Shown here piece by piece: positions 24,233 to 59,399 of a DNA stretch of 64,000 bases; position 1 is the stretch's first letter, and every line of letters begins with the position of its first letter. Under the pieces are notes generated by a model, which did not search any database, was not told the DNA's origin, and was given only the letters and a program-made list of their open reading frames with translations. Made by a program: the position numbers and the translations under genes. The stretch spans positions 32,001 to 96,000 of the forward strand of contig CAVSGG010000007.1 in the NCBI GenBank assembly GCA_963727455.1. Reading direction: 5' to 3'. This stretch comes from Candidatus Krumholzibacteriota bacterium (GTDB lineage: Bacteria > Krumholzibacteriota > Krumholzibacteriia > JAJRXK01).

Positions 24233-24391
24233 GCCACCGCAATCCTGTGGAAAGAATAAAAGCGTATAAATGAGCTCTCCGGCGAGGCCGGACTGGAAAC
24301 GGGCAGGGTCTATGCTCGATAATTGAGAGGTGCATTCATCGTGGCTTCAGTTCGTGGCCCGGTGTTTCTCGCAGTTCAGTCAGGAGTCGCC

Positions 24392-26369
24392 ATGGCCCGC
24401 CCCCGTCGCTTCCATTTCACCCCCCTCGCGCTCGTTTTCGCCCTACTCGCTGACGTGCGTCCTCGCCTGGACCGCTTCGGCCGGGGCCCAGACCATCACT
24501 TCCACCCTTTTCGGGCAGAGCGCCGCCGCGAACGGTCACTACAGCCAGTCCGTGCGCGACGCGGGGGATCTCAACCACGACGGCGAGCCGGACCTGGTCA
24601 TCGGCGCCCCTCTGGAAATGTTGAGCGGATTGGAAGAGGGCCGCGCCTTCATCTTCTTCGGAGGCAGCCAGGAACGTCTGCAGCTCCAGGGCACCGGCAC
24701 GCAGGAGCACTTCGGCTGGGCCGTGAGTGGCATTGGCGACGTGAACGGCGACGGCTTCGACGACCTTGCCGTGGGGGCTCCCCTGAACAACGCCGTGGCC
24801 AGTGAAGCGGGCCGGGTCTACGTCTTTTTCGGCGGCGACCCCATGGACGGCACTGCGGATCTGATTCTGAGCGGAGAGATCGCGGAGGACCACTTCGGCT
24901 GGAGCGTGTGCCGTGGCGGCGATCTCAACGGCGACGGCAAGCCGGACTTCCTCGTGGGCGCTCCTTTGGCAAATTCCCCCGGACAGGACCAAGGGGCGGT
25001 CTATCTCTATCTCGGCGCGATCGGTACACCCGCGAGCACCTACGCCAAACGTTTCACCGGGGAGCAAGCCGGCGATCAGTTCGGTTACTCGGTGGCCGAC
25101 GTGCCGAACTTCAAGGGCGACGGCACGCCCGGATTTCTGGTGGGCGCGCCGGACAAGGACCTTCCCATTCTCAACGGCGGGAAGGCCTATCTCTTCTTCG
25201 CCGGGATAGCCGGAGCACTTCCGGCCTCGACCGCGGCTGTGCAGTTCGTGCCGCCCGCCGGATCTCCTTCGGATCTGTATCTGGGATGGTCGCTCAGTCA
25301 GGCCGGGTATTTCAACGCGGACAGTCGCAGCGACGTGGTGATTGGCGCGCCAGGATACCTGGCCGACCGTGGCTACGTGGCCGTCTATTACGGTGCCGCC
25401 TCTCCTTCGGCACAGCCCGCGGCCGATCAGACTATCGAGGGAGCGACCGGTGGCGATCGCTTCGGCGAAGCGGTGGCCGACGTGGGGGACTTTTCCGGGA
25501 ACGGCCGTGGGGACCTGGTGGTGGGTGCACCCTACCGTGACACTTTGGGCATGGATGCGGGCGAGGCGTATTACTTCGAAGGTGGCGCGAGTTATACTTC
25601 GGCCAGCCAGGGTAGCTTGGTCATCCGTGGCGCTTCCGCACTACAGTCGCCGCCGGGAGATCTTCTCGGCAGTTCGATCTCCATCATCGGAGATCTCGAT
25701 GGCGACGGCCGGCCCGAGTTCGCCGTCGGCGCGCCGATGGGAAACAACCCCTCCAACGCAGTCACCGGCTACGCCGCTCTCGTTTCCTCGGCCGGCGTGC
25801 CGCTGCCGGTGCTTCCCACGCGCATGCGCCAGCGCTCGCTGATCGATGGCGGCATCGAGCTTCACTTCGTTGGTCAGGTAGTCGACGCCGCCAGTGCGGT
25901 TCTGCTCGCTACGGGCAACGGTGAGAGGATCTTGGCCAGCTTGGATCAGGGCCTGAGCCGCGAGGACCAGGGCCTGGTGGGGCGCTTTACGCGCGCGCAG
26001 CTTTCTGGAGTGGATCAACTCGAGCTGCAGTGGTCTTTCGGGGGTGACAGCCTGACGCGCGACGAGAACTTCACCCTGCAACTGCCCGAGCTGCGTTTCC
26101 GCTTACTCCCGCCGGTGCCGAATCCCTTCAATCCCTCCACGGAGTTGAGCCTCGATCTGCCACGCGCGATGCAGCTGCGCTTGCGCGTGGTGGATGCGAA
26201 GGGGCGTCAGGTGCGCACCCTGTTTCGGGGCATGGCCGGTCCCGGGCAAATCCGCCTGCACTTCGACGGACGCGATGACCGCGGACGGCTCCTGGCCAGC
26301 GGGGTCTACACCTTCGTGGTGCAGAGTGAGCGTTCCCAGGACTCGGTGCGCGCCCTCTTGCTGAAGTAG
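24392..26369 (+). CDS. Secreted FG-GAP repeat (integrin-alpha-like propeller) protein with C-terminal FlgD-Ig/T9SS-like domain; probable frameshift near 24450
   Basis: Seven GD.NGDG..D..VGAP-type repeats; PNPFNPST...GRQVRTL...DGRDDRG..LASGVY. Confidence 0.88.
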
Positions 26370-46729: not shown

Positions 46730-49700
46730 ATGATCCGATCGGCGGCCCTTCGCGGCCGTCAGCCAAGGAGCTGGACCTTGCGACGCAAACTGGGAATGGC
46801 CGCAACGCTGGCCGTCACGACCCTTTGGGTTCTTCTCGCGCTGGGCGCAACGACCGCGGTGGCACAGCCCACACTGGTCAGCGTTCAGAACACCGACTTG
46901 TCCACTGTGGTCGTCACCTTTTCCGAGAACATCGACACTGTGACCGGGGAAACGGCCTCCAACTACTTTCTTTTCGAGAAGGACACCCCGGGGAATCAAC
47001 CTGGCATTTCCAGCGCGTCAGTCTCGGGAACGGAGGTGACGCTCGCGCTCGCCACTCCCCTCACCGGAGGTGTGGTCTACACCCTGCGGGTGCAGAACGT
47101 GGAGAACACTTCGAACCAGCCCATCTCTGGCGTGCCCGCTTTGGATTTCACTGCCACGGGAGGCAGCAGCGCCACTCCGATCGCAGACATTCAAGGAAAC
47201 GAAGCTGCCTACGACGGTCAGGTCGTCACGGTGGAAGGCGTGGTGTACATCCCGACCAATTACCGGGGCACCACGATTTCCGGTTACATCCAGGACAGCT
47301 CGGGACGCGGGATCAACCTCTTCGGCAGCGGGATGGACGTGGCCGAGCTTCAGGCCGTGGGCAATCGCGTGAGCGTCACCGGCACCGTATCTACTTACTT
47401 CACCACGGTGGAAATCACCAATCCCACCGACGTGACGCTCCTCTCTAGCGGCAATCCCCTGCCCACCGCGGCGCAGCTTTCTACGGGGGCGGCGGCCAAC
47501 GCGCAGTGGGAAGGGACTTTCATCGAGGTCACCGGGACCATCAGCGCGCAGGCCGTGTCAGGACCGGGGACCAACTACACGATTAACGACGGTTCGGGAC
47601 CGATTGACGTGCGCGTCGTGGACACACTTAGCGCTCCTAACTTCAGTAACGGCACCACCATCACCGCGCGTGGCGCGGGAGGAGCTTTCTCCACCACCTT
47701 CCAGGTCTTGGTGGGCGCGGCTTCTGACGTTTCTACTGCGGGTCCTACGGAGCTCGCGGTGAGCGACGCCTCGGCCAGCGACGCGACCACGGTGGTCGTC
47801 AACTTCAACAAGGCCATCGATGCGGCTAGCGCGAGCGATCCTGGATCGTTCAGCGTCTATCCCACGGGGCAGCCGGGAAGTCCCTTCAGCGTGACCGCAG
47901 TGAGCCCCGCCAGCGCGAGCGTCACTCTCACTCTGGGATCTTCGCTCAGTGACGGAGTGTCCTACACCGTCGAGGTGGCCGACGTCGAAGACACCGGCGG
48001 CGGCGTCATCGGCAGCAGCAACTCGGCGAGCTTCACCTTCACTGCCTCGAGCGCGACTTCCATTGCCACCATTCAGGCCAATCCCTCTTCCTATGATGGC
48101 CAGGTGGTCACGGTGGAAGGCGTGGTCTACATCCCCAGCGACTATCGCGGGGCCACCATTTCCGGTTACATCCAGGACAGTTCGGGTCGGGGGATCAATC
48201 TCTTCGGCTCGGGCTTTGACGTTCCGGCCGCCCAGACCGTGGGCAACCGGATCCGAGTGACCGGTACCGTCTCCCTGTACTTCAGTACCGTGGAGATTTC
48301 CAATCCGACCGAAGTGACGGTGCTCTCGGGCGACAATCCGCGGCCGTCGGCGGTGCAGCTCAGCACGGGCGCTGCGTCCAGCAGCGACTGGGAAGGTACT
48401 TTCATCGAGGTCACCGGAACCATCAGCTCGCAGGCGGTGGGAGGACCGGGGACCAACTACACGGTGAATGACGGCTCGGGTACGATCGTCGTTAGGGTCG
48501 TGGACACTCTGGGCGCGCCGAGCTACAGCAACGGCACCACGATCACCGCGCGGGGTGCGGGTGGATACTTCGACCCCGACTACCAGGTACTGGTGGGTCT
48601 GGTCAGCGACATCAGCACCGGCGGCGGGGCCGATACCGATCCCCCCACCGTGACCGGAGCCAGCGCTACTTCTGCCAACTCCGTCAGCGTGAATTTCAAC
48701 GAGCCTCTGGACTCGACCACCGCGCAGAGTGCGAGCAACTATCAGCTTTATGAGACCTCCGCTCCGGCCAACACCATCATGGTGAGCGGTGCGACGCTGG
48801 TCGGAAGCAAGGTCACCCTGAGCCTCGGCTCCGACATGACGGATGGGACTTCTTATACCGTTTCGGTCACGGGCGTGGAGGACCTCGCGGGAAACGTGAT
48901 CGCGGGCAGCAACACTGCTTCCTTCACCTACACCGCATCCAACGCCACTCCCATTGCCACCATTCAGGCCAATCCCTCTTCCTATGATGGCCAGGTGGTC
49001 ACGGTGGAAGGCGTGGTCTACATCCCCAGCGACTATCGCGGGGCCACCATTTCCGGTTACATCCAGGACAGTTCGGGTCGGGGGATCAATCTCTTCGGCT
49101 CGGGCTTTGACGTTCCGGCCGCCCAGACCGTGGGCAACCGGATCCGAGTGACCGGTACCGTCTCCCTGTACTTCAGTACCGTGGAGATTTCCAATCCGAC
49201 CGAAGTGACGGTGCTCTCGGGTGACAATCCGCGGCCGTCGGCGGTGCAGCTCAGCACGGGCGCTGCGTCCAGCAGCGACTGGGAAGGTACTTTCATCGAG
49301 GTTACCGGAACCATCAGCTCGCAGGCGGTGGGAGGACCGGGGACCAACTACACGGTGAATGACGGCTCGGGTACGATCGTCGTTAGGGTCGTGGACACTC
49401 TGGGCGCGCCGAGCTACAGCAACGGCACCACGATCACCGCGCGGGGTGCGGGTGGATACTTCGACCCCGACTACCAGGTACTGGTGGGTCTGGTCAGCGA
49501 CATCAGCACCGGCGGCGGAGCCGATACCGATCCCCCCACCGTGACGACCGCAAACGCCAGCTCTGCAACTTCCGTCAGCGTGAACTTCAATGAAGCCCTG
49601 GACACCGCGACGGCGCAGACCGCGAGCAACTACCAGGTGTTCGAGACCGCCACTCCCGCGAATACCTTCGCGGTGAGCAGCGCCGCTCTCAACGGCAGCC

Positions 49701-51088
49701 GCGTTACTTTGACTCTGGCGTCCGGGCTGACCGAGGGTACCTCGTACACCGTCTCCGTGAGCAACGTGGAGGATGTGGCGGGGAACGTGATCGCGGGGAG
49801 TAATACGGCGGTCTTTACCTACACTGCATCCAATGCGATTCCCATCGCCACCATTCAGGCCGATCCCGAGAGCTACGATGGCCAGGTGGTCACGGTGCAG
49901 GGCGTGGTGTACATCCCCAGCGACTACCGCGGCGCCACGACCTCGGGTTACATCCAGGATTCCTCGGGTCGAGGGATTAACGTCTTCGGCAGCGGCTTCA
50001 ACGTCGCGGCCACACAAACCGTGGGCAACCAGGTCGAGGTGACGGGAACGGTCTCTCTCTACTTCACCACGGTCGAAATCACCAATCCGACGACGGTGAA
50101 GGTGCTTTCGGGCGGCAATCCGCGACCGCCGGTAGCCCAGCTCTCCACTGGGGCGGCGGCCAACGGGCAGTGGGAGGGGACCTTCATCGAGGTCTCCGGA
50201 CCGATCACTGCGCAAGCGGTTGCGGGTCCCGGCGTGAATTACACGGTGAACGACGGCTCGGGGCCGATCGACATTCGCGTGGTGGACACGCTTAGCGCAC
50301 CCACCTTCAGCAACGGCACCACCATCACGGCACGCGGCGCGGGTGGTTTGTTCGGGAGCACCTATCAGGTGAATGTGGGATTGGCGAGCGACATTTTCGA
50401 GGGCAAGCCTGACGACACCTCGCCTCCAAGAATCGACCGAGCCAGCCTGGAAACCGCCTCGACGGTGATCATCGATTTCAGCGAGGGGCTGGAGCCGAGT
50501 TCCGCCACTGCGAGTTCCAATTACCAGGTCTATCGCACCAACGCTCCCTCGCAAACCGCCGGGGTGGTCAGTGCCGAATTCGCGTCGGGATCGGCGAACC
50601 GTATCCGTCTGACCCTCGACCGTAACCTGGGACTGGAGGAGAACTGGTCGGTGCGCGTGACGGGGGTGGCCGACCTGAATGGCAACGCCATCCCGGCGCC
50701 CGGGCTGACCGCCAACCTCGCACCTCTCCTGGTGGACGCCATCAAGTTGGAGGGTCCACCCTTCACTTTCCTGCCTCGCGACGGCGAGCGCTATCCGCTG
50801 ACCATCAATCTCACTTCCGATCTCATCGCGAAAAACGGCGAAGTGATCCTGAGAATCTTCAACATGAACGGGACTCTCGTGAAGACTCTATTCGACAGTC
50901 GAGTGACGACACTCGAGTCCGTATTCAACGACAACCGGGCGACCTTCGAGTGGGACGGCAAGGACGAATTCGGCGAGTTTGTACCGGCCGGCGCATACGT
51001 AGCACACCTGCAGACGCGCTCCACCGGTAGCGACGGATCCAAAGAGAAGCAGATGCCCGTGGTCGTGGCATCGCGCTTGGACCGATAG
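46730..51088 (+). CDS. Large secreted protein: (Ig-like + two OB folds) x4, fifth Ig-like, C-terminal FlgD-Ig/T9SS-like domain
   Basis: Signal peptide ending AVA-Q; V.FSE/FNE..D..TA...SNY Ig units; IA.IQ...GQVVTVEGVV...YIQD..G.GI OB units; IFNMNG.LVKTL...WDGKD..GE.VPAG.Y; start may be 46796. Confidence 0.85.
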   Translation: MIRSAALRGRQPRSWTLRRKLGMAATLAVTTLWVLLALGATTAVAQPTLVSVQNTDLSTVVVTFSENIDTVTGETASNYFLFEKDTPGNQPGISSASVSGTEVTLALATPLTGGVVYTLRVQNVENTSNQPISGVPALDFTATGGSSATPIADIQGNEAAYDGQVVTVEGVVYIPTNYRGTTISGYIQDSSGRGINLFGSGMDVAELQAVGNRVSVTGTVSTYFTTVEITNPTDVTLLSSGNPLPTAAQLSTGAAANAQWEGTFIEVTGTISAQAVSGPGTNYTINDGSGPIDVRVVDTLSAPNFSNGTTITARGAGGAFSTTFQVLVGAASDVSTAGPTELAVSDASASDATTVVVNFNKAIDAASASDPGSFSVYPTGQPGSPFSVTAVSPASASVTLTLGSSLSDGVSYTVEVADVEDTGGGVIGSSNSASFTFTASSATSIATIQANPSSYDGQVVTVEGVVYIPSDYRGATISGYIQDSSGRGINLFGSGFDVPAAQTVGNRIRVTGTVSLYFSTVEISNPTEVTVLSGDNPRPSAVQLSTGAASSSDWEGTFIEVTGTISSQAVGGPGTNYTVNDGSGTIVVRVVDTLGAPSYSNGTTITARGAGGYFDPDYQVLVGLVSDISTGGGADTDPPTVTGASATSANSVSVNFNEPLDSTTAQSASNYQLYETSAPANTIMVSGATLVGSKVTLSLGSDMTDGTSYTVSVTGVEDLAGNVIAGSNTASFTYTASNATPIATIQANPSSYDGQVVTVEGVVYIPSDYRGATISGYIQDSSGRGINLFGSGFDVPAAQTVGNRIRVTGTVSLYFSTVEISNPTEVTVLSGDNPRPSAVQLSTGAASSSDWEGTFIEVTGTISSQAVGGPGTNYTVNDGSGTIVVRVVDTLGAPSYSNGTTITARGAGGYFDPDYQVLVGLVSDISTGGGADTDPPTVTTANASSATSVSVNFNEALDTATAQTASNYQVFETATPANTFAVSSAALNGSRVTLTLASGLTEGTSYTVSVSNVEDVAGNVIAGSNTAVFTYTASNAIPIATIQADPESYDGQVVTVQGVVYIPSDYRGATTSGYIQDSSGRGINVFGSGFNVAATQTVGNQVEVTGTVSLYFTTVEITNPTTVKVLSGGNPRPPVAQLSTGAAANGQWEGTFIEVSGPITAQAVAGPGVNYTVNDGSGPIDIRVVDTLSAPTFSNGTTITARGAGGLFGSTYQVNVGLASDIFEGKPDDTSPPRIDRASLETASTVIIDFSEGLEPSSATASSNYQVYRTNAPSQTAGVVSAEFASGSANRIRLTLDRNLGLEENWSVRVTGVADLNGNAIPAPGLTANLAPLLVDAIKLEGPPFTFLPRDGERYPLTINLTSDLIAKNGEVILRIFNMNGTLVKTLFDSRVTTLESVFNDNRATFEWDGKDEFGEFVPAGAYVAHLQTRSTGSDGSKEKQMPVVVASRLDR
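48060..48654 (+). repeat. Intragenic direct repeat copy 1 (~595 bp)
   Basis: Matches 48951-49545 at 891-bp offset; 3 mismatches seen by eye. Confidence 0.9.
48951..49545 (+). repeat. Intragenic direct repeat copy 2 (~595 bp)
   Basis: Near-identical to 48060-48654; shadow ORFs are also duplicated in the ORF track. Confidence 0.9.
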
Positions 51089-51101
51089 GAGGCACGGCTC
51101 A

Positions 51102-52016
51102 ATGCAATCGAAACGAACTCCGATTCTCCTGCTGCTGCCTCTGCTCTTGCTGGTCGCGACCAGCGCCCGGGCGGCCTTCGACGACCTCGCGGTGAGTCCG
51201 CGAGCGCGCGCCATGGGTTCGGCCGTGGTTGCGGTCGACGGCGATGCCTGGAGTTTTTACAACAACCCGGCGCTCTTGCCCTGGTTGGATAAGCCGGCAG
51301 CGGCCGCGGCGACTGCCGAACCCAACAACGGCGGGTACAACCGTCTGAGCACTCTGGGGGGAGCGATGCCCCTCCCGGGAAACTGGGGCGGTCTGGCAAT
51401 AGGCCTTCGGCACCTGGGTGTCGACAACAACGGCACGAGCCTTTTGAGCGAATACACGATCTCCGTTTCCAACGGATTTCAACTCTTCAAGGACGAAGCT
51501 TCCGGCGCGGCGGTGGGTTGGACCCTGAACTTCTACAACCTCGACTTCGGGCAGAGCATCGGGCTGGCCGGGGACGGAAGCAACGGGATCGACCCGGGCA
51601 ATGCCTGGGCTACCGGGCTGGATCTCGCTGGAATCGTGGAGGTATGGGACCGCACGAAGATTGGCTTCGTCGCCAAGAATATCAACAATCCCACGATTGG
51701 TGACGACAACGAGGAACTCATCCAGCAGGTGGCCATCGGAGTGAGCTATCAGCCTTACGAACAGGTCACGACCGCGTTCGACATCCGTAGCCGCGTGGGG
51801 GAGGAGTTCCGGGTCCACGGCGGGGCCGAGTTCGGTGTTCTCGACGTACTCGATCTGAGGGCGGGGCTCGAAACCGATCCCAACAAACTCTGCGCCGGAT
51901 TCGGAGTTCACTTTCACGGCGCCACGCTCGACTACGCTTTCTCCACCGGGGGAGGCGTTCTCGAGTCGACGCATCAATTCGGTCTGAGCTATCGCTTCTC
52001 GGGAGGGGGGGAGTAG
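51102..52016 (+). CDS. PorV/PorQ-like outer-membrane beta-barrel
   Basis: Signal peptide; SPRARAMG.A.VA..GD......NPA; C-terminal LDYAF...THQFGLSYRF. Confidence 0.75.
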   Translation: MQSKRTPILLLLPLLLLVATSARAAFDDLAVSPRARAMGSAVVAVDGDAWSFYNNPALLPWLDKPAAAAATAEPNNGGYNRLSTLGGAMPLPGNWGGLAIGLRHLGVDNNGTSLLSEYTISVSNGFQLFKDEASGAAVGWTLNFYNLDFGQSIGLAGDGSNGIDPGNAWATGLDLAGIVEVWDRTKIGFVAKNINNPTIGDDNEELIQQVAIGVSYQPYEQVTTAFDIRSRVGEEFRVHGGAEFGVLDVLDLRAGLETDPNKLCAGFGVHFHGATLDYAFSTGGGVLESTHQFGLSYRFSGGGE

Positions 52017-52017
52017 C

Positions 52018-54600
52018 GTGAACGCTCCGCGCGAGAGCATGCGGCGCGGACTCCTCCTGGCGGCGGCCTTGTGTCTGTTGCCCGTGGCGAGTTCTCATGC
52101 CCAATACGAGCAAGGGGACACCCGCCGGGAAGCCATCGAGGCTGGCAAACTCCAGGCGGACGAATCTTTGACTCGGGGAAAGCTCGACCTCAACCGTGCG
52201 ACGCGACAGCAGCTGAAGAAGCTGCCGATCCCCGCCGATGTGGCCGACGCCATCTACGAGTACCGCACTTACCGCAGTTACTTCGATTCGATCTACGATC
52301 TGCGCCATGTCGAGGGCGTCACTCCGGAAATGATCAAGGAACTCCTGCCTCTCGTCGCGACGATGCCGCCCAAGACCCAGGAAGACTGGGTACGACGTTA
52401 CGACGAGTCATTTCGGCAATTGCAGAGATTCTTGAGCCGGGAGGGCGCGAGCGAGGAGTTGGCGGATGAATACCGTGACCAGCTGCTCGAACCTCGTGAC
52501 ATCAACGAACTCTCGCTCTACGACCTGCAGAGCTACCAGAATGTCTCGCCGGTGGATGCAACTGCGATCATCAAGGCGCGCGAGCGCTCGGGAAAGATCC
52601 AGAGCCAGCGTCAGCTGCGCAGCGCGGATGGTCTGACTTACTGGGCGTACCGGAATCTGCGCGACTACGTGGTCTACGAGCCGCCGGAGCAGGACATGAA
52701 GCTCCACGGCAGCATGCAGTTGCAGACCTTCAATACTCCCTATCTACTGGATGAGAAGGATCTTTTGACCGAGACCTTCCATCCGGCAGTCACTAGTACC
52801 GAGCCGCCAGAGTTCTCAGAGGAAACTCCCTACGGGCTCAAACATCTGGACAGCCCCAACCCGGCGGTACTGACCAAGCTGCGACTGCGCATGGGACTGC
52901 AGTGGAAGGCCGGAGTGAGCACTTTCCGCGACGTCGGGGAGAAGAATCTGGCTGAAACCGCCAAGTACTTCCTCGAATGGCGTAATCAAAACAATAATAG
53001 GAACCAGCTGGACAAAGTGGTGCTGGGCAACTTCCGTGTCGCGTTCGGGCAGGGTTTGGTGATGGACAACACCGACTACTTCCTGAGCCGTAAGACAGGC
53101 ACGGGCTTCAACAAGCGTCCCCAGGGACTCTTGGGCGACATGAGCCGTTCCTACGAGTTTGCTCTTCGCGGCGCAGCGGCCGAAGCGTCGCTGGGGAAGT
53201 TCCAGCTCCTGGGTTTCGTCAGCAGCGGGAAGAAGGATGGAATCCTCAATTACGATTCCGATGGCAACGCGCTGAGTATCAACAAGTACATCGTGGGAAG
53301 CCCGCGCTTCGAAAATTCCGAGTACGAGCAGATGGAAAGCAACATCCGCCGGGGTGCCTTTGACGAAGATCTGTACGGTGGCTTGGCGCGCTACGAACTC
53401 TGGCCCGGAACCTACGTGGGCCTTTCCGGTTACGAGGCGCACTACAACCTTCCCTTCGATCCCAACGTGAACACGATCGTGGCCCGCACTGATCTTTTGG
53501 ATGGCAGAGATTCCGAGCTGTTCAACGCCTACGATTCCAGACAATTGGGCAAGTTCCGACGGGTGCTGGGGGCCGAGTTCCAGACCGTGGTGGACAACGT
53601 CGCCTTCCAGGGTGAGTACGCGAAACTCGATTCGAATCCCGACGGGGGACTGCTCTCCAACGCTCCGGACGCCATGGTGTTCACCGGCTACACGCAGTGG
53701 GAGAACTTCAACATCTTTGCCCTCTATCGCGACTACGACGTGGGCTTCGACAATCCCTACGCGCGACCCTTCGGTGAGGACAGTCGCTACGAGCAGACTC
53801 TGCTCACCGATCCCTTCCGCCTGAATTCACCGCTCTACTCTTGGCTCGAGACGAGCACGCCGCAGACCAAGGCCGAGCGCGGCATCTTCTTGCAGACGCG
53901 CTACCGCATCAGCCGGCAGATCACCATCAGCGGTCTGGAATTCGACCAGTGGGTGCGCAAGGCTGATGGTCAGAGTCAGCGCCGCTACACCTTACGGGTG
54001 GAATACGCGCCCGTGTGGCCGATTCGATTCCGCGTGCGCCAGCGCTATAGCGATCGCGCCGGCGAGGAGCTCTTGGACAACCGGCGCTTCAAGAGCTGGG
54101 ACAGTCGCTTCGAGGTACGGGGGCGTCTCTCGGCCTACGACGAACTGCGCTTGCTCTACAGCAATACCAACACCCAGTTCGCCCCACGTCCGCGTCTGAG
54201 CGGCTTGGCTGAGCCCACCGATCCCCAGGGCTACACTTACACCCCCTTATCGCAAGCCGCCAGCCCCAGCAAGGCCATCCAGGGCATGCTGATCCACAAC
54301 GTCAACGATCGCCTCCAGTTCACGCTGAGCACGGAAGTCTACGACGGCTTCTTGTGGAACTTCGAGGACAACGAGTTCATCGCAGTCGATGGTCAGGGCA
54401 TCCGCAGCTGGTTCCTCGTTCAGAGTCGGCTCTCGGACAGCATGCTCGTACGCTTCAAGATGACCCACGACCGGCAACGCACGCGAAACAACTTGCAGAT
54501 TCGCGATTATCCCAATTCCGCGCCGAGACCTGAAGATTTCCATACGGGCGACAAGCGGGAAATCACGGCCTTCCGCCTCCAGCTCGACTACAACTTCTAG
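52018..54600 (+). CDS. ComEA-like helix-hairpin-helix protein fused to outer-membrane beta-barrel
   Basis: LDLNRAT..QLKKLP...ADAI.EYR...F.SIYDL..VEGV and a second DINELS...AII.AR unit; LGNFRVAFGQGL; terminal FRLQLDYNF. Confidence 0.8.
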   Translation: MNAPRESMRRGLLLAAALCLLPVASSHAQYEQGDTRREAIEAGKLQADESLTRGKLDLNRATRQQLKKLPIPADVADAIYEYRTYRSYFDSIYDLRHVEGVTPEMIKELLPLVATMPPKTQEDWVRRYDESFRQLQRFLSREGASEELADEYRDQLLEPRDINELSLYDLQSYQNVSPVDATAIIKARERSGKIQSQRQLRSADGLTYWAYRNLRDYVVYEPPEQDMKLHGSMQLQTFNTPYLLDEKDLLTETFHPAVTSTEPPEFSEETPYGLKHLDSPNPAVLTKLRLRMGLQWKAGVSTFRDVGEKNLAETAKYFLEWRNQNNNRNQLDKVVLGNFRVAFGQGLVMDNTDYFLSRKTGTGFNKRPQGLLGDMSRSYEFALRGAAAEASLGKFQLLGFVSSGKKDGILNYDSDGNALSINKYIVGSPRFENSEYEQMESNIRRGAFDEDLYGGLARYELWPGTYVGLSGYEAHYNLPFDPNVNTIVARTDLLDGRDSELFNAYDSRQLGKFRRVLGAEFQTVVDNVAFQGEYAKLDSNPDGGLLSNAPDAMVFTGYTQWENFNIFALYRDYDVGFDNPYARPFGEDSRYEQTLLTDPFRLNSPLYSWLETSTPQTKAERGIFLQTRYRISRQITISGLEFDQWVRKADGQSQRRYTLRVEYAPVWPIRFRVRQRYSDRAGEELLDNRRFKSWDSRFEVRGRLSAYDELRLLYSNTNTQFAPRPRLSGLAEPTDPQGYTYTPLSQAASPSKAIQGMLIHNVNDRLQFTLSTEVYDGFLWNFEDNEFIAVDGQGIRSWFLVQSRLSDSMLVRFKMTHDRQRTRNNLQIRDYPNSAPRPEDFHTGDKREITAFRLQLDYNF

Positions 54601-54610
54601 GGAGTATCCC

Positions 54611-55978
54611 ATGCGTGGCACGATTCGTAGAAGCTCACTGTTCATCCTGTTGGTTCTGCTGTTGCAGGCAGTGGCAGTTCCCGGAGCGGTGGCAACGACC
54701 ACTTTGGATGCGGCCTTCGGGACGCCCTTCGGCGCGCAAACTCCACGAGCGGCGGCCATGGGCTCGGTGGGGGCGGCCCTCTACCAGGGCAGCGCCAATC
54801 TCGTCGCGAACCCGGCGATGCTGTCGCGGATGGACGGCCGGCTGCGGGTCGAATTCAATGGCGGCATTTCCCAGGTCAACGAGGATCGTTACCAGCCGCT
54901 CTTCGACTCCTTCGAGTCCTACCTGACGGACACCGTGGTGGCCAGCAATCGCAACAGCTACGGCCTCTTGCAGGGTGGCGCAATCTATCAGCTTCTGCCC
55001 GAACATCAGGTGACGGTGGGGATTGGGATCTTCGACCGCTACAGCTTCGACTACGACTACTTCGAGGAGATTCGCGATACCAACACCTCCAACGTTCCCT
55101 CCCGTGACGCGGTGGTTCAGTTACGCGACTACCAGATCGACGGCAGGCTGCGCTCGATCACCTTTGGCTATGGAATGGAGATCACGCCCCGGCTCAGAAT
55201 GGGGATCAGCCTCCATCGCTACACCGGCACACTGACGCACACGGCCAACACGCGCACCACCGCCCTCTATCTGAATACCTTCACTAGCGATCCGGGATCG
55301 GCCGCCTTCGAGCATGAACTTCGCGGTTGGGGCTGGACGGCCGGACTCGCCGGCACGGTGAACGAGCGCCTGGATGTGGGAGCGAGCTTCGAGGGGCCGT
55401 TCACGGTGCAGGGAGCGATCAGTTCCATGGACTCGACGATCGGCAGCTGGATGCCCTACGATCAGAGCGTTGTCGTGATGCCGGTGACGAGTGGCGACGT
55501 CAAGGTCAAGTACCCCGGAACGCTGCGGGCGGGCGTTAGCTATCGCCCCCGCAACCTCTTGACCACCGTGTTTTCGGTGGACCTCGTGCGCCGCTTCTGG
55601 GAAGGCGTGGCCGACGAGAGCTACCGGACCGCGGCCTTCGTTTCTCGCGGTACTCTGCGCGATACCTGGGACCTGCGCTTCGGGCTGGAGCACGTCTTCT
55701 ACAACAACGTGCCAGCGCGTTTCGGCTTCCGCTACCTCGAGAACTACGCCGATCCGGAATCGAATCGCTCGATCTTTTCCGGCGGCGTGGGCTACGAATC
55801 CGCGGGATACAAGTTCGACGTGACTCTGCAGTACCATCGGCAAACCAGCCGGCAGGCCTTCATTTTCGACCGCACTCTGACCTGGTCGGACGGTCAGGTC
55901 GATCCGGGGCCTACCAGCCTCTCGAAAGTGGAAGATGGAATGGTGAGTCTGTTGCTGGGGGTCTCCCGAAATTTCTAA
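54611..55978 (+). CDS. FadL/OmpP1-like outer-membrane beta-barrel
   Basis: Signal peptide; PRAAAMG...ANPAML hatch-like motif; amphipathic strands; terminal LLLGVSRNF. Confidence 0.7.
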   Translation: MRGTIRRSSLFILLVLLLQAVAVPGAVATTTLDAAFGTPFGAQTPRAAAMGSVGAALYQGSANLVANPAMLSRMDGRLRVEFNGGISQVNEDRYQPLFDSFESYLTDTVVASNRNSYGLLQGGAIYQLLPEHQVTVGIGIFDRYSFDYDYFEEIRDTNTSNVPSRDAVVQLRDYQIDGRLRSITFGYGMEITPRLRMGISLHRYTGTLTHTANTRTTALYLNTFTSDPGSAAFEHELRGWGWTAGLAGTVNERLDVGASFEGPFTVQGAISSMDSTIGSWMPYDQSVVVMPVTSGDVKVKYPGTLRAGVSYRPRNLLTTVFSVDLVRRFWEGVADESYRTAAFVSRGTLRDTWDLRFGLEHVFYNNVPARFGFRYLENYADPESNRSIFSGGVGYESAGYKFDVTLQYHRQTSRQAFIFDRTLTWSDGQVDPGPTSLSKVEDGMVSLLLGVSRNF

Positions 55979-56039
55979 TTTTACTATCTTCCTAGGAAGG
56001 ACGAAGCCCACCCACGGCGGAAACCCCCGGGAGTCAGCC

Positions 56040-57719
56040 ATGCGAGCCAAAACCCTACTTCTCATCTTCAGCCTCAGCATTCTCCTCGTCCCCAGCGCGC
56101 GGGCCGAAGACGAGGGGATGATCCGTCTCCATCTCTTGTGGACGAACGACATCCACGGCCACGTTGGGCCCGAGGAAGCGCGCTTCATGAATCCCGACTT
56201 CCCGCCTCCTCTGGGCGGTGGCGCGGCGGCGGCGGCCTACGTGCACAAGGTGAGGGCCGAGGTCAAAGGCGATCCCAACCAGGCAGTCCTCTTGGTCGAT
56301 GCGGGGGATACCTGGCAGGGAGCCCCGGTGGGCACCTTGAGCCAGGGCAGGGTCATGGAGACCTACTTCAACACCATGCACTACGACGCGGTGACGGTGG
56401 GGAATCACGAATTCGACAAGGGCAAGGACGTTCCCATTCGCATGTCGGCCGCGATGAAGCAGAAGTTCGTCTGCGCCAACATCTACAAGGAGGGCACCGA
56501 CGAGCTGGTCGACTGGGTCGTGCCCTATCGCGTGGTTGAGAAGGCCGGCCTCAAGATCGGGATCATCGGCGCCATCACTCCGGCGACCAAGTCCATGGCC
56601 TTCGACGAGAACGTGAAGGGTCTGGATTTTAGGCCCATTCCTCCCGCGCTCGAAAAGTACCGCGATATCCTGAAGAACAAAGAACACGTCGACCTGGTCT
56701 TTGCGCTCATCCACGAGGGTTTGCCCTACGATCCCGAAACTGGCTGGAAGCAGTTGGTGAAGCGGGTGAAGGAGGGCGACGATCTCCAGGACCACGCTCA
56801 GGGCGACATGGGCATCGCGCACGTGGTCACGGGAATTCCCGTCGTCATCGGCGGCCACACGCACCGGGGCTACCGCAAGCCTTGGATCGATCCGGTGACG
56901 CAGGCCATGGTCTTCGAGACCTTTGGAAACGGCTCCTCCATCGGACACGTGGAGATCCTCATCGACCGGGCGACCAAGCAGGTGATGGGCTACGAGAGCC
57001 CGCGCCGCGACGGTACCCTCATCACGCTCTTCGAGGACCAGTACTGGCCGGACCCCGAGATGGCCAAGGATCTGGAGCCCTACATCGCCGACGCCCGTAA
57101 GGGCCTGGACAAGACGGTGGGAAGGTCGGCGGTGGAGCTCTCGCGCAACGGCGGACCGCTCTCGCGTATGGGAATCCTCGTAACCTCGGCCATGCTGGAG
57201 GCGCAGAACGGCGATTTCGCCTTCACGAACCTGGGCGGGCTGCGAGCGAACCTCTCGGCAGGCCGCATCACCATGGGTGATCTGATGCAGGTCTTGCCCT
57301 TCGGCAACGCCTTGGCCACGGTCCAGATGGATGGCTCGATGATCCGCCGCATCTTCGAGCGCAAGACGGGTCGCAACAGCAGTGGCATTGCCTACAGTGG
57401 AGTGAAGGCCGTAGTCGATCCGGATGCGCCGTACGGTCAGCGGGTGCTGCAGCTCACCCTGCTCGATGGAACCCCCATCGTGCCAGGGAAGGACTATAAG
57501 GTCGTCACCAGCGACTTCCTCATGGAGGGAAACAGCGGACTGGACTTCCTGGCCGAGATCCCGCCCGACAAGATCAACTACACCGGCATGCTGACCCGGG
57601 AGGCCCTGGCGGACTACATCAAGGCCCACTCGCCGGTCTCCCCGCATTCGGATGACCGTTTCAAGGAGGACGTGGGGGGCGCCCGCGCCACATACCTGAA
57701 GCCCCTGGACCTGCAGTAA
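56040..57719 (+). CDS. Exported bifunctional metallophosphatase / 5'-nucleotidase (UshA/CpdB family)
   Basis: TNDIHG, DAGD, GNHEFD, GGHTH; C-domain NLGGLR, VLPFGN. Confidence 0.93.
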   Translation: MRAKTLLLIFSLSILLVPSARAEDEGMIRLHLLWTNDIHGHVGPEEARFMNPDFPPPLGGGAAAAAYVHKVRAEVKGDPNQAVLLVDAGDTWQGAPVGTLSQGRVMETYFNTMHYDAVTVGNHEFDKGKDVPIRMSAAMKQKFVCANIYKEGTDELVDWVVPYRVVEKAGLKIGIIGAITPATKSMAFDENVKGLDFRPIPPALEKYRDILKNKEHVDLVFALIHEGLPYDPETGWKQLVKRVKEGDDLQDHAQGDMGIAHVVTGIPVVIGGHTHRGYRKPWIDPVTQAMVFETFGNGSSIGHVEILIDRATKQVMGYESPRRDGTLITLFEDQYWPDPEMAKDLEPYIADARKGLDKTVGRSAVELSRNGGPLSRMGILVTSAMLEAQNGDFAFTNLGGLRANLSAGRITMGDLMQVLPFGNALATVQMDGSMIRRIFERKTGRNSSGIAYSGVKAVVDPDAPYGQRVLQLTLLDGTPIVPGKDYKVVTSDFLMEGNSGLDFLAEIPPDKINYTGMLTREALADYIKAHSPVSPHSDDRFKEDVGGARATYLKPLDLQ

Positions 57720-57761
57720 AGTCCCCGGAGCCGCTGCCCCAGGAGGTCGAATTTTGGTCAG

Positions 57762-57799
57762 GGGAGTCTTGCCGCGATGCGAGACTCCCTTTTCCTTTT
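57762..57799 (+). terminator. Intrinsic terminator closing the 46.7-57.7 kb operon
   Basis: GGGAGTCTTGC-cgcgat-GCGAGACTCCC followed by TTTTCCTTTT. Confidence 0.8.
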
Positions 57800-58121
57800 G
57801 CAAGCCTCCCCGCTTCCTCCCGTGGCGTTTTCCCTGAGCAAAATTCCCTGAATTTGTCGCCGCCGTGCGTCGGCGAAGCCTCCCCTGCGAGGTAGCTCAG
57901 GGGCGCTGCCCTTCCCATGATTCCCCATGGGGGAGCGCTCTTCCCCGCCATCTGTGGGACGAGGCCCTGGGGCTGGACCATGGGTCAGAAGGCCTAGGAG
58001 CGGGGATTCGCTTCCGGTCTTTATCCTGCATGTCCGTCAGCTACCAAGAGCGTCGCTTCGTGCGCCGGGGGGGCGCAGAGGTCACGACCGCGGCTCGCCC
58101 GCCCATCTGGAGGAGATTCCC

Positions 58122-59399
58122 TTGGCTCAACCGGCACGGTGCCTCGTGACTTCCGATCGCGTCCGGCTCGATCCGAGTCAGCGCAACCCTCAACTCACCC
58201 GATTTCATGAACTGATGCAGAAAATGGTGGTCGGCCAGCCGAGCGCCCTGGAGACCGTCACCAATTCCTTTTCCAGGCTCTTGGCGGGGATCCACGACCC
58301 GGAAAGTCCCATTCTCACCATGATGCTCCTGGGGCCGACCGGAGTGGGGAAGACCGAGACCGTTCGCTGTTTGGCCGAAGCCCTCTTCGGCAGCCGTAAG
58401 GCCTTCACCCGCGTGAACTGTCAGGAATATTCGGCCCACTACAACCTCTCGAAGCTCTTGGGAAGCCCACCAGGCTACGTGGGGGGCGAGATCAAGCCGC
58501 TGCTCTCCTCGGAGAACTTGGAGCGGCACTACAAGAAGGCGGTCGAGGAAGGACTGGGCCTCTTCCAGGACAGCCTGGGTAGCTTTTCCAACGCGGACGA
58601 GGAGGGAGGGCTCTCGCTCGTGCTCTTCGACGAGATCGAAAAGGCCCATCCCAAGCTCTGGAGCATGTTGCTTGGCATCCTGGAGGACGGGAATCTGGTG
58701 CTGGGGAACAACGAGGAAGTCGATTTCCGGCGCAGCATCATCGTGCTCACCACCAACGTGGGGAGCGAGGCCATGGGCAAGCACCTCTCGCATCAGGACA
58801 TCGGTTTCTACGACGACGACGACGAGGAACGCGTCGACCGCGATGTACACGAAGCCGCCCTGCGCGAAGCCCGCAAGGTCTTTCCTTTTGAGTTCTTGAA
58901 TCGCTTCGACGAGCTGATCAGCTACGACACCCTCAAGGAATCGCACCTCTACCAGATTCTGGACAATCTCATCGCTGACATCCACATCCGCAGCATCAGT
59001 TGCACCGAACCCTTCCTCTTGCGCGTCAGCCCCAAGGCGAAAGAGATACTGGTGCAGGAGGGGCACGACCCGCGCTTTGGCGCGCGTCCCCTGCGCCGCG
59101 CGGTCGAGAGCAAGCTCGTGACGCCCATCGGCCACCTCATCTCGAGCGGGCAGGTGGTACGCGGAGATCTCATCACGGTCGATTTCACAGACGAATTCAT
59201 TTTCGAGAAGGAACCCGGGGTAATGACTGCGGAGGAAATCGCGGCCTTCGAACGGCAGAAGCTCGAGAAGGAGAAGAGCCGCGATCTGGACGGAATCGAC
59301 GACGGTGGCGAAGCCAATCGCATCGTGGAAGAAGTCGACGAGGTGCTGGCGCGGGGCCTGACCCTGAGAGAGAGCAGCAGCATTCCCGGCGACATCTGA
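58122..59399 (+). CDS. Stand-alone Clp/Hsp100 D2-type AAA+ ATPase
   Basis: GGAGGAG RBS before TTG; VVGQ, GPTGVGKT, GSPPGYVG, LFDEIEKAH, EFLNRFD, GARPLRR; no N-domain or D1. Confidence 0.85.
   Translation: MAQPARCLVTSDRVRLDPSQRNPQLTRFHELMQKMVVGQPSALETVTNSFSRLLAGIHDPESPILTMMLLGPTGVGKTETVRCLAEALFGSRKAFTRVNCQEYSAHYNLSKLLGSPPGYVGGEIKPLLSSENLERHYKKAVEEGLGLFQDSLGSFSNADEEGGLSLVLFDEIEKAHPKLWSMLLGILEDGNLVLGNNEEVDFRRSIIVLTTNVGSEAMGKHLSHQDIGFYDDDDEERVDRDVHEAALREARKVFPFEFLNRFDELISYDTLKESHLYQILDNLIADIHIRSISCTEPFLLRVSPKAKEILVQEGHDPRFGARPLRRAVESKLVTPIGHLISSGQVVRGDLITVDFTDEFIFEKEPGVMTAEEIAAFERQKLEKEKSRDLDGIDDGGEANRIVEEVDEVLARGLTLRESSSIPGDI

Follow-up and report, generated by a model that had tools for sequence, protein, structure and literature searches.

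To our knowledge, two kinds of route by which nucleic acid crosses the bacterial outer membrane have been described: through secretins and through the TonB-dependent Ddb transporter, the latter known since 2025. Much phosphorus, nitrogen, and carbon is contained in extracellular DNA, and little is known of the organisms that consume it or of how they take it up (PMC8289736). The DNA-utilization locus ddbABCDEF of Bacteroides thetaiotaomicron feeds on DNA by means of the TonB-dependent transporter DdbC, with DdbD as its lid (PMC12478041). Here, we analyze a five-gene operon (genes A to E) in a 64,000-nucleotide stretch of contig CAVSGG010000007.1 (positions 32,001 to 96,000; assembly GCA_963727455.1) from a Candidatus Krumholzibacteriota bacterium, hereafter the window. 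Its gene content, conservation, and motifs, together with modeled folds, suggest that the operon serves nucleic-acid utilization for feeding through cell-surface capture, uptake, and dephosphorylation, a reading to which we assign a probability of about 0.6; from these features we infer binding and transport, and possibly complex formation.

The operon shares with ddbABCDEF the presence, in one locus, of a surface OB-type binder (in Ddb the HIN-like DUF5689), an outer-membrane transporter, and surface and periplasmic hydrolases (PMC12478041). It differs in that the putative pore is an HhH-fused barrel of about 24 strands with no TonB-receptor domain match, the binder is a predicted type IX secretion system (T9SS) cargo with its own PorV-like carrier, a FadL barrel is added, and the enzyme that stays constant is a 5'-nucleotidase. 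None of the five proteins matches a TonB-receptor, plug, or carboxypeptidase-regulatory family, DUF5689 has no match in the host genome, and the secreted nucleases found within Ddb loci are absent from this copy. By analogy, the operon probably works like ddbABCDEF, yet it falls outside that group. An earlier note on this DNA, made from the sequence alone, had known of no described system with this composition; the composition does differ, but ddbABCDEF is a functional analog. We also considered whether genomes without the operon use Ddb instead and rejected this: DUF5689 is found in 6/6 genomes of one such family (f6), but both loci opened encode stand-alone T9SS proteins.

Individual parts recall other systems. 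In Vibrio cholerae ComEA, a GIG hairpin and residues K62 and K63 are required, and K63E abolishes transformation (PMC3879209). Gene C has the same HhH fold (PDB 8dss, 2duy) and probably the same periplasmic placement, but its HhH domains are fused to a barrel and the hairpin and both lysines are not kept. The nuclease ExeM carries both lamin-tail (LTD) and OB accessory domains, and its OB part is needed for activity (PMC6085458). These accessory domains of the ExeM/NucH and YhcR extracellular nucleases recur in gene A and its relatives, and EEP domains occur in relatives' operons; unlike those enzymes, A has no catalytic domain and the modules are spread over separate genes. The Riemerella anatipestifer transformation machinery (PMC8459023) resembles the locus in its pilus-independent model, surface DUF5689 protein, barrel, and HhH protein, and differs in using another barrel family and a separate HhH protein. 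T9SS cargo-carrier pairs (PorU-PorV, PorZ-PorQ, SprB-SprF), whose type B pattern places the cargo gene directly upstream of the carrier gene (PMC12398890), share with A and B a gene for a C-terminal domain (CTD) protein directly 5' of a PorV/SprF-like gene and a PorU-like CTD fold. Here, however, B scores below the family cut-offs, the cargo is an OB/LTD array, and the pairing is a predicted one.

Searches of the open full-text literature found neither the operon nor the C barrel described. We regard the C barrel as an undescribed family and the operon as a variant, built on that family, of a known kind of nucleic-acid feeding. More tentatively, C may be the founding member of a so far undescribed class of nucleic-acid channel in the outer membrane, distinct from both secretins and TonB-dependent receptors. 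Together with a T9SS-anchored OB/LTD capture protein, it may form an uptake machine that needs neither pilus nor TonB and that several uncultured phyla use, marine Marinimicrobia among them.

The five genes are conserved as a block

Relatives of C numbered 225 among 7998 scored candidates, the closest (91% and 88%) lying in Candidatus Krumholzibacteriota records. We compared neighborhoods at the best 80 of 179 relatives from genome records, titled mostly Krumholzibacteriota, Eisenbacteria, or uncultured bacteria, and at the best 80 of at least 479 metagenome relatives found with a distant alignment (GC 26–70%). Nearly all relatives with sufficient flanking sequence preserve the order A-B-C-D-E. 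At genome loci, B is present in 80/80, the A tail in 73/73, D in 73/73, and E in 61/61; the metagenome counts are 69/69 for B, 54/55 for A, 78/78 for D, and 67/67 for E, and all of these overstate independence because many loci are close kin. The co-conservation on which the earlier note had staked its proposal is thus borne out. In 60 genome loci, the reading frames of B and C share 4 nt. Clusters of C relatives are named for Marinimicrobia, WOR-3, Cloacimonadota, and Gemmatimonadota, as well as Eisenbacteria, and an Atlas search of C returned the same groups and, as a lead, a Bacteroidota cluster of 664 aa. The neighborhoods seen include Marinimicrobia-type loci, and none is tied by name to WOR-3 or Cloacimonadota.

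Across 41 related genomes, the 17 that carry C are also the 17 with a strong D match; E, at an identity of at least 45%, is found in these 17 operon genomes and in one other, G031. SprA (41/41) and ComEC (40/41) are present irrespective of the operon. Phylum-wide, C is found in 75/155 genomes and in three of nine families. Because of this patchy occurrence, the operon is, as judged from gene distribution, an accessory block and not housekeeping, with C, D, and E gained and lost together. The additional E in G031 (L206; G031:C1:3523229-3524854) is a stand-alone ortholog with 57% identity located after the ATP synthase genes; neither C nor D has a match in that genome.

Genes A and B encode a predicted surface protein and its carrier

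Family-model scans of A identify five Big_5 Ig domains, matches below cut-off to the N-terminal part of ExeM/NucH, and a FlgD/PorU-type tail; the Ig domains alternate with four tandem-OB units. The C-terminal 417 residues were modeled from a 110-row alignment (pLDDT 95); of the OB units, this model covers only unit 4, which adopts two OB folds. These match tRNA-synthetase anticodon domains, RPA, Stn1, and MCM (Z 11–12.6, root-mean-square deviation (rmsd) about 2), and HIN DNA-binding domains appear among the Foldseek matches of the model. The proposal that the repeats are OB folds, which had been set beforehand as a test of the capture reading, therefore stands, although each repeat contains two such folds where one had been counted. 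Conserved aromatic and basic positions in the units include Y1074, R1081, F1086, Y1111, R1183, and F1208. DUF5689, the DdbD family, is matched by 16 of the 110 alignment rows (best 1.9e-6), and by sequence the A units are related in type to DUF5689 as distant kin, with no orthologous relationship.

Units 2 and 3 share 99% protein identity. Because they are only 90% identical in DNA and a relative (L021) has the same four units, the sequence data indicate that the array is not an assembly artifact; Tandem Repeats Finder reports nothing on A, whose repeat period of 891 exceeds its limit. Close relatives have one to four repeats. Among 75 open reading frames (ORFs) from genome loci, 59 carry LTD repeats, 10 OB, three both, and three, which are short or broken, neither. 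Translation of A probably starts at TTG 46778, since AGGAG lies just upstream and the frame opens at the same TTG in a close relative, L062. Judged by eye, the N termini of all five proteins resemble Sec signal peptides.

The tail of A matches the PorU CTD (6za2; Foldseek E 4e-10; Z 11.4, rmsd 3.0, 102 aligned), and A thus combines a CTD fold with the presence of SprA in the genome, as expected of a T9SS cargo. The host also has at least seven PorV-family genes above cut-off. B itself reaches 58 bits against PorV_fam (NF033709; cut-off 90) and stays below all family cut-offs; among its 81 alignment rows, 25 match FadL, 14 PorV, and 7 PorP/SprF, and its profile finds the solved PorV 6h3i at 1.4e-7. 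We consider B a probable dedicated surface anchor for A, whose tail it would hold.

Other apparent T9SS cargo is common in this host. About 60 of its proteins carry a FlgD-like tail, which with SprA and the PorV genes amounts to a large T9SS repertoire outside Bacteroidota. An FG-GAP repeat protein with a FlgD tail, encoded at 24330-26369 of the window, is another probable cargo. Secreted OB-type proteins are encoded away from the operon at G000:C3:145262-147208 (−), with a T9SS tail, and at C5:97656-98483 (+). In five distant loci (L141, L153, L157, L190, L195), an extra T9SS cargo gene with LTD, PKD, OB, and Por secretion tail domains lies directly 5' of A.

Gene C joins ComEA-fold domains to a large barrel

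C contains two HHH_3 domains (Pfam 57 bits, cut-off 27). In its structure model (pLDDT 83), we counted 24 long barrel strands from the secondary structure. The N-terminal domain superimposes on ComEA 8dss (Z 11.7, rmsd 1.3, 64 aligned). The best matches of the barrel are the ushers FimD (Z 13.2) and PapC (Z 12.6), with rmsd of about 5 and identity of at most 10%, and Foldseek returns generic barrels only (query TM at most 0.33). The strand count fits the 24 of ushers; C has no usher Pfam match, and no pilin match occurs among the five genes. In the model, the conserved arginine ladder (Table 1) would face the barrel lumen, and the non-lipid face, assigned from strand alternation, sums to 28.8 basic against 18.3 acidic residues over the strands. 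Residues 134–225 might plug the barrel, a hint taken from TonB-receptor alignments that begin at residues 134–147. Covariation between the N-terminal part and the barrel (mutual information with average product correction, 394 rows, Neff 178) is dominated by clade signal, and complex prediction of the C barrel with B gave no answer (score 0.01, mark 0.32).

One relative of C (P0186; 1251 aa) has some 430 additional N-terminal residues. The host genome also contains a second triad in A-B-C layout (L203; G000:C8:58564-62548, −), with ORFs of 545 aa, 263 aa (barrel-like), and 531 aa (HhH-barrel-like). The 545-aa protein has a lamin-tail-like start, by eye, and a weak FlgD tail; a search on this locus gave just seven matches. 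We do not count this triad as an operon homolog: similarity to C is confined to the HhH domain, and the small gene, compared as a single sequence against a profile, does not match B.

Genes D and E and accessory enzymes

D belongs to the Toluene_X/FadL family (33.3 bits, cut-off 29.7). It shares FadL-family membership and a weak model match with BamG (PMC12611786), but BamG is described as a core BAM subunit whereas D is patchy (17/41 genomes), and D reaches only 49.8 bits against NF053685 (cut-off 250); on both grounds we rejected D as BamG.

E contains both nucleotidase domains, Metallophos and 5_nucleotid_C, and their motifs. In 62 proteins from genome loci, GNHE, GHxH, NxGGxR, and PFxN are present in 62/62, the DxH pattern in 51, and the AGD pattern in its strict form in 20. 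Among solved structures, E is closest to the nucleotidase 3ivd (1.7e-60); the score against the NCBIfam UshA equivalog is 170 bits, below the cut-off of 600. By domains and motifs, E is a predicted UshA-type 5'-nucleotidase, and it is probably periplasmic; no T9SS tail was found on it.

Relatives' operons recruit further enzymes. Of 58 full-length metagenome E proteins, 24 match E in the N-terminal half only, without the 5_nucleotid_C half, and an EEP domain is present in both of those scanned. EEP is encoded by a gene of its own at 27/80 metagenome loci (28 entries, of which one is a cut E), a metallo-beta-lactamase gene of ComEC-like type lies at 19/160 loci, and a gene for a UgpB-like ABC binding protein at 5/160. 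The nuclease-type domains strengthen the link to nucleic acid. Unlinked to the operon, the host genome encodes an EEP homolog, NupC, and deoC; the NupC family is found in 15/17 operon genomes against 4/24 others, a difference confounded by family among non-independent kin. An EEP lipoprotein at G000:C9:516705-517668 (−), with a match of 1.3e-32 to the EEP domain of the marine operon and split into two frames near the C terminus, is a candidate unlinked nuclease.

A possible pathway and its alternatives

On the feeding reading, A would be exported via Sec and the SprA translocon, then held on the surface by its uncleaved tail in B. There, its tandem OB arrays, or the LTD arrays of relatives, may tether extracellular DNA or RNA, which a nuclease would cleave; nuclease-type domains are encoded in relatives' operons and, in this host, only elsewhere in the genome. 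Oligo- and mononucleotides could then pass the outer membrane through the large arginine-lined barrel of C, whose N-terminal helical/HhH part is more plausibly a gate or substrate catcher than a ComEA-like ratchet. E would strip phosphate in the periplasm, and the nucleosides would enter by a NupC-type carrier. D might be a second anchor or scaffold, or a channel for nucleosides or bases.

Several points weigh against this reading. Arginine ladders are found in other porins, and the EEP and metallo-beta-lactamase folds include non-nucleases. Family scans of the five proteins detect no nuclease domain on this operon copy, D shows no link to nucleic acid, and an energy source was not identified. 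The OB units of A are acidic overall, each with 5–7 Lys and Arg against 14–16 Asp and Glu, and LTD and OB domains are also found in stand-alone T9SS proteins of these taxa. In C, the HhH domains have LP-IPADVA and QNVSPVDA in place of GIG and the lysine pair, domain 1 is acidic (mean net charge −3.6), and the K63 position of domain 2 is D180, which is acidic in 99% of 394 rows with Asp near-invariant. DNA binding by these domains is doubtful, and we go no further than doubt because domain 2 retains four other arginines (R198, R201, R212, R215) and the lysine pair is likewise missing from a short ComEA-like protein of the host itself. The earlier note had read C as a ComEA-type DNA binder within a TonB-free machine for capture, import, and salvage. 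That reading is supported in part, by co-conservation, the OB folds, and the nuclease-type domains of relatives, but not in the DNA-binding motif of C or in independence from TonB: the genome has six TonB_C matches, though the operon encodes no TonB-dependent receptor.

The combination of a ComEA fold, the retained arginines of domain 2, and a barrel nearest to 24-strand ushers would also suit pilus-independent uptake of intact DNA for transformation, with C supplying pore and ComEA ratchet in one protein and passing DNA to ComEC; Ddb is, moreover, related to the Riemerella transformation system. We think this rather unlikely, as the ComEA DNA-binding motif is not kept, a short ComEA, ComEC, and genes that, from their sequences, we take to be pilB-, pilT-, and pilC-like are already encoded elsewhere in the genome, ComEC is present with or without the operon, and the constant presence of a nucleotidase fits breakdown. 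Scavenging of free nucleotides or cofactors (nucleoside monophosphates, NAD, UDP-sugars) with no handling of polymers would account for E as the sole enzyme always present, with a nucleotidase as its nearest solved relative, for the missing nuclease in this copy, and for the UgpB-like protein beside some loci. It is nevertheless unlikely, because the uptake of monomers would not require arrays of tandem OB units, a barrel of such size, or EEP and ComEC-like domains recruited time and again.

That FimD and PapC are the best barrel matches, that B and C overlap, and that BAM and T9SS use FadL-family barrels as scaffolds or anchors could also be explained if C were an usher-like export or assembly platform for A, for instance as an adhesin of an extracellular-DNA matrix, with E ancillary. 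The usher match is weak, however, SprA offers an existing export route in every related genome, and E is kept in 128/128 testable loci, which makes such a platform quite unlikely. Local synteny in the phylum is strong, a ClpB-like gene following the operon in 43/56 genome loci and a PTS EIIA gene preceding it in 40/60, so unrelated genes might simply have stayed together; this is very improbable and largely refuted, given that the five genes stay in the 15 distant loci compared, which lack the flanking genes at these positions, and that the operon is gained and lost as a block. Nucleic-acid feeding, the reading we prefer, would make the locus a candidate third outer-membrane route for nucleic acid and C a candidate marker gene for nucleic-acid feeders in uncultured phyla. 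The operon parts can be expressed and assayed singly, and the locus points to accessory T9SS cargo-carrier pairs outside Bacteroidota.

Layout of the locus and neighboring genes

Table 1 Features of the operon, in window coordinates.
Feature	Position	Strand	Description
Gene A	longest ORF 46730-51088, likely 46778..51088	+	1452 aa from 46730
Four tandem-OB units of A	~47174-47731, 48056-48616, 48947-49507, 49838-50395 (span 47174..50395)	+	Weak ExeM/NucH N-part matches; unit 4 modeled
C-terminal sorting domain of A	50729..51085	+	PorU CTD-like structure; own conserved subfamily
Gene B	51102..52016	+	304 aa; PorV/PorQ/SprF-like barrel
Gene C	52018..54600	+	860 aa; two ComEA-fold HhH domains, acidic helical linker, ~24-strand outer-membrane barrel
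N-terminal part of C	52177..52680	+	HhH domains 1 (aa 54-116) and 2 (aa 158-221), joined by a linker in which E142/G143/E146/D150/D154 are conserved
Arginine ladder of C	54022..54057	+	R670, R672, R674, R676, R680 on one barrel strand; each basic in 0.8-1.0 of 70 rows
Gene D	54611..55978	+	455 aa; FadL/OmpP1-family barrel
Gene E	56040..57719	+	559 aa; UshA-family 5'-nucleotidase
Intrinsic terminator-like hairpin	57760..57799	+	13 pairs at 57760-57791, T tail

The ORFs and hairpin folding confirm the layout first proposed, with five co-oriented genes separated by 13, 1, 10, and 61 bp and closed by a terminator (Table 1). The hairpin folds with a z of −4.6, and 0/200 shuffles fold equally well; terminator-like sites in the 16-kb region are not in excess (9 against a shuffle mean of 11). 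A sigma-70 scan yielded no operon promoter. Directly 3' of the operon, at 57927-59399 of the window, lies the ClpB-like ATPase gene, which encodes the D2 module only. This gene and the PTS gene on the 5' side were rejected as operon members on account of their absence from these positions in the 15 distant loci. In two relatives, L062 (G001:C5) and L082, C and D are frameshifted, through either assembly error or decay.

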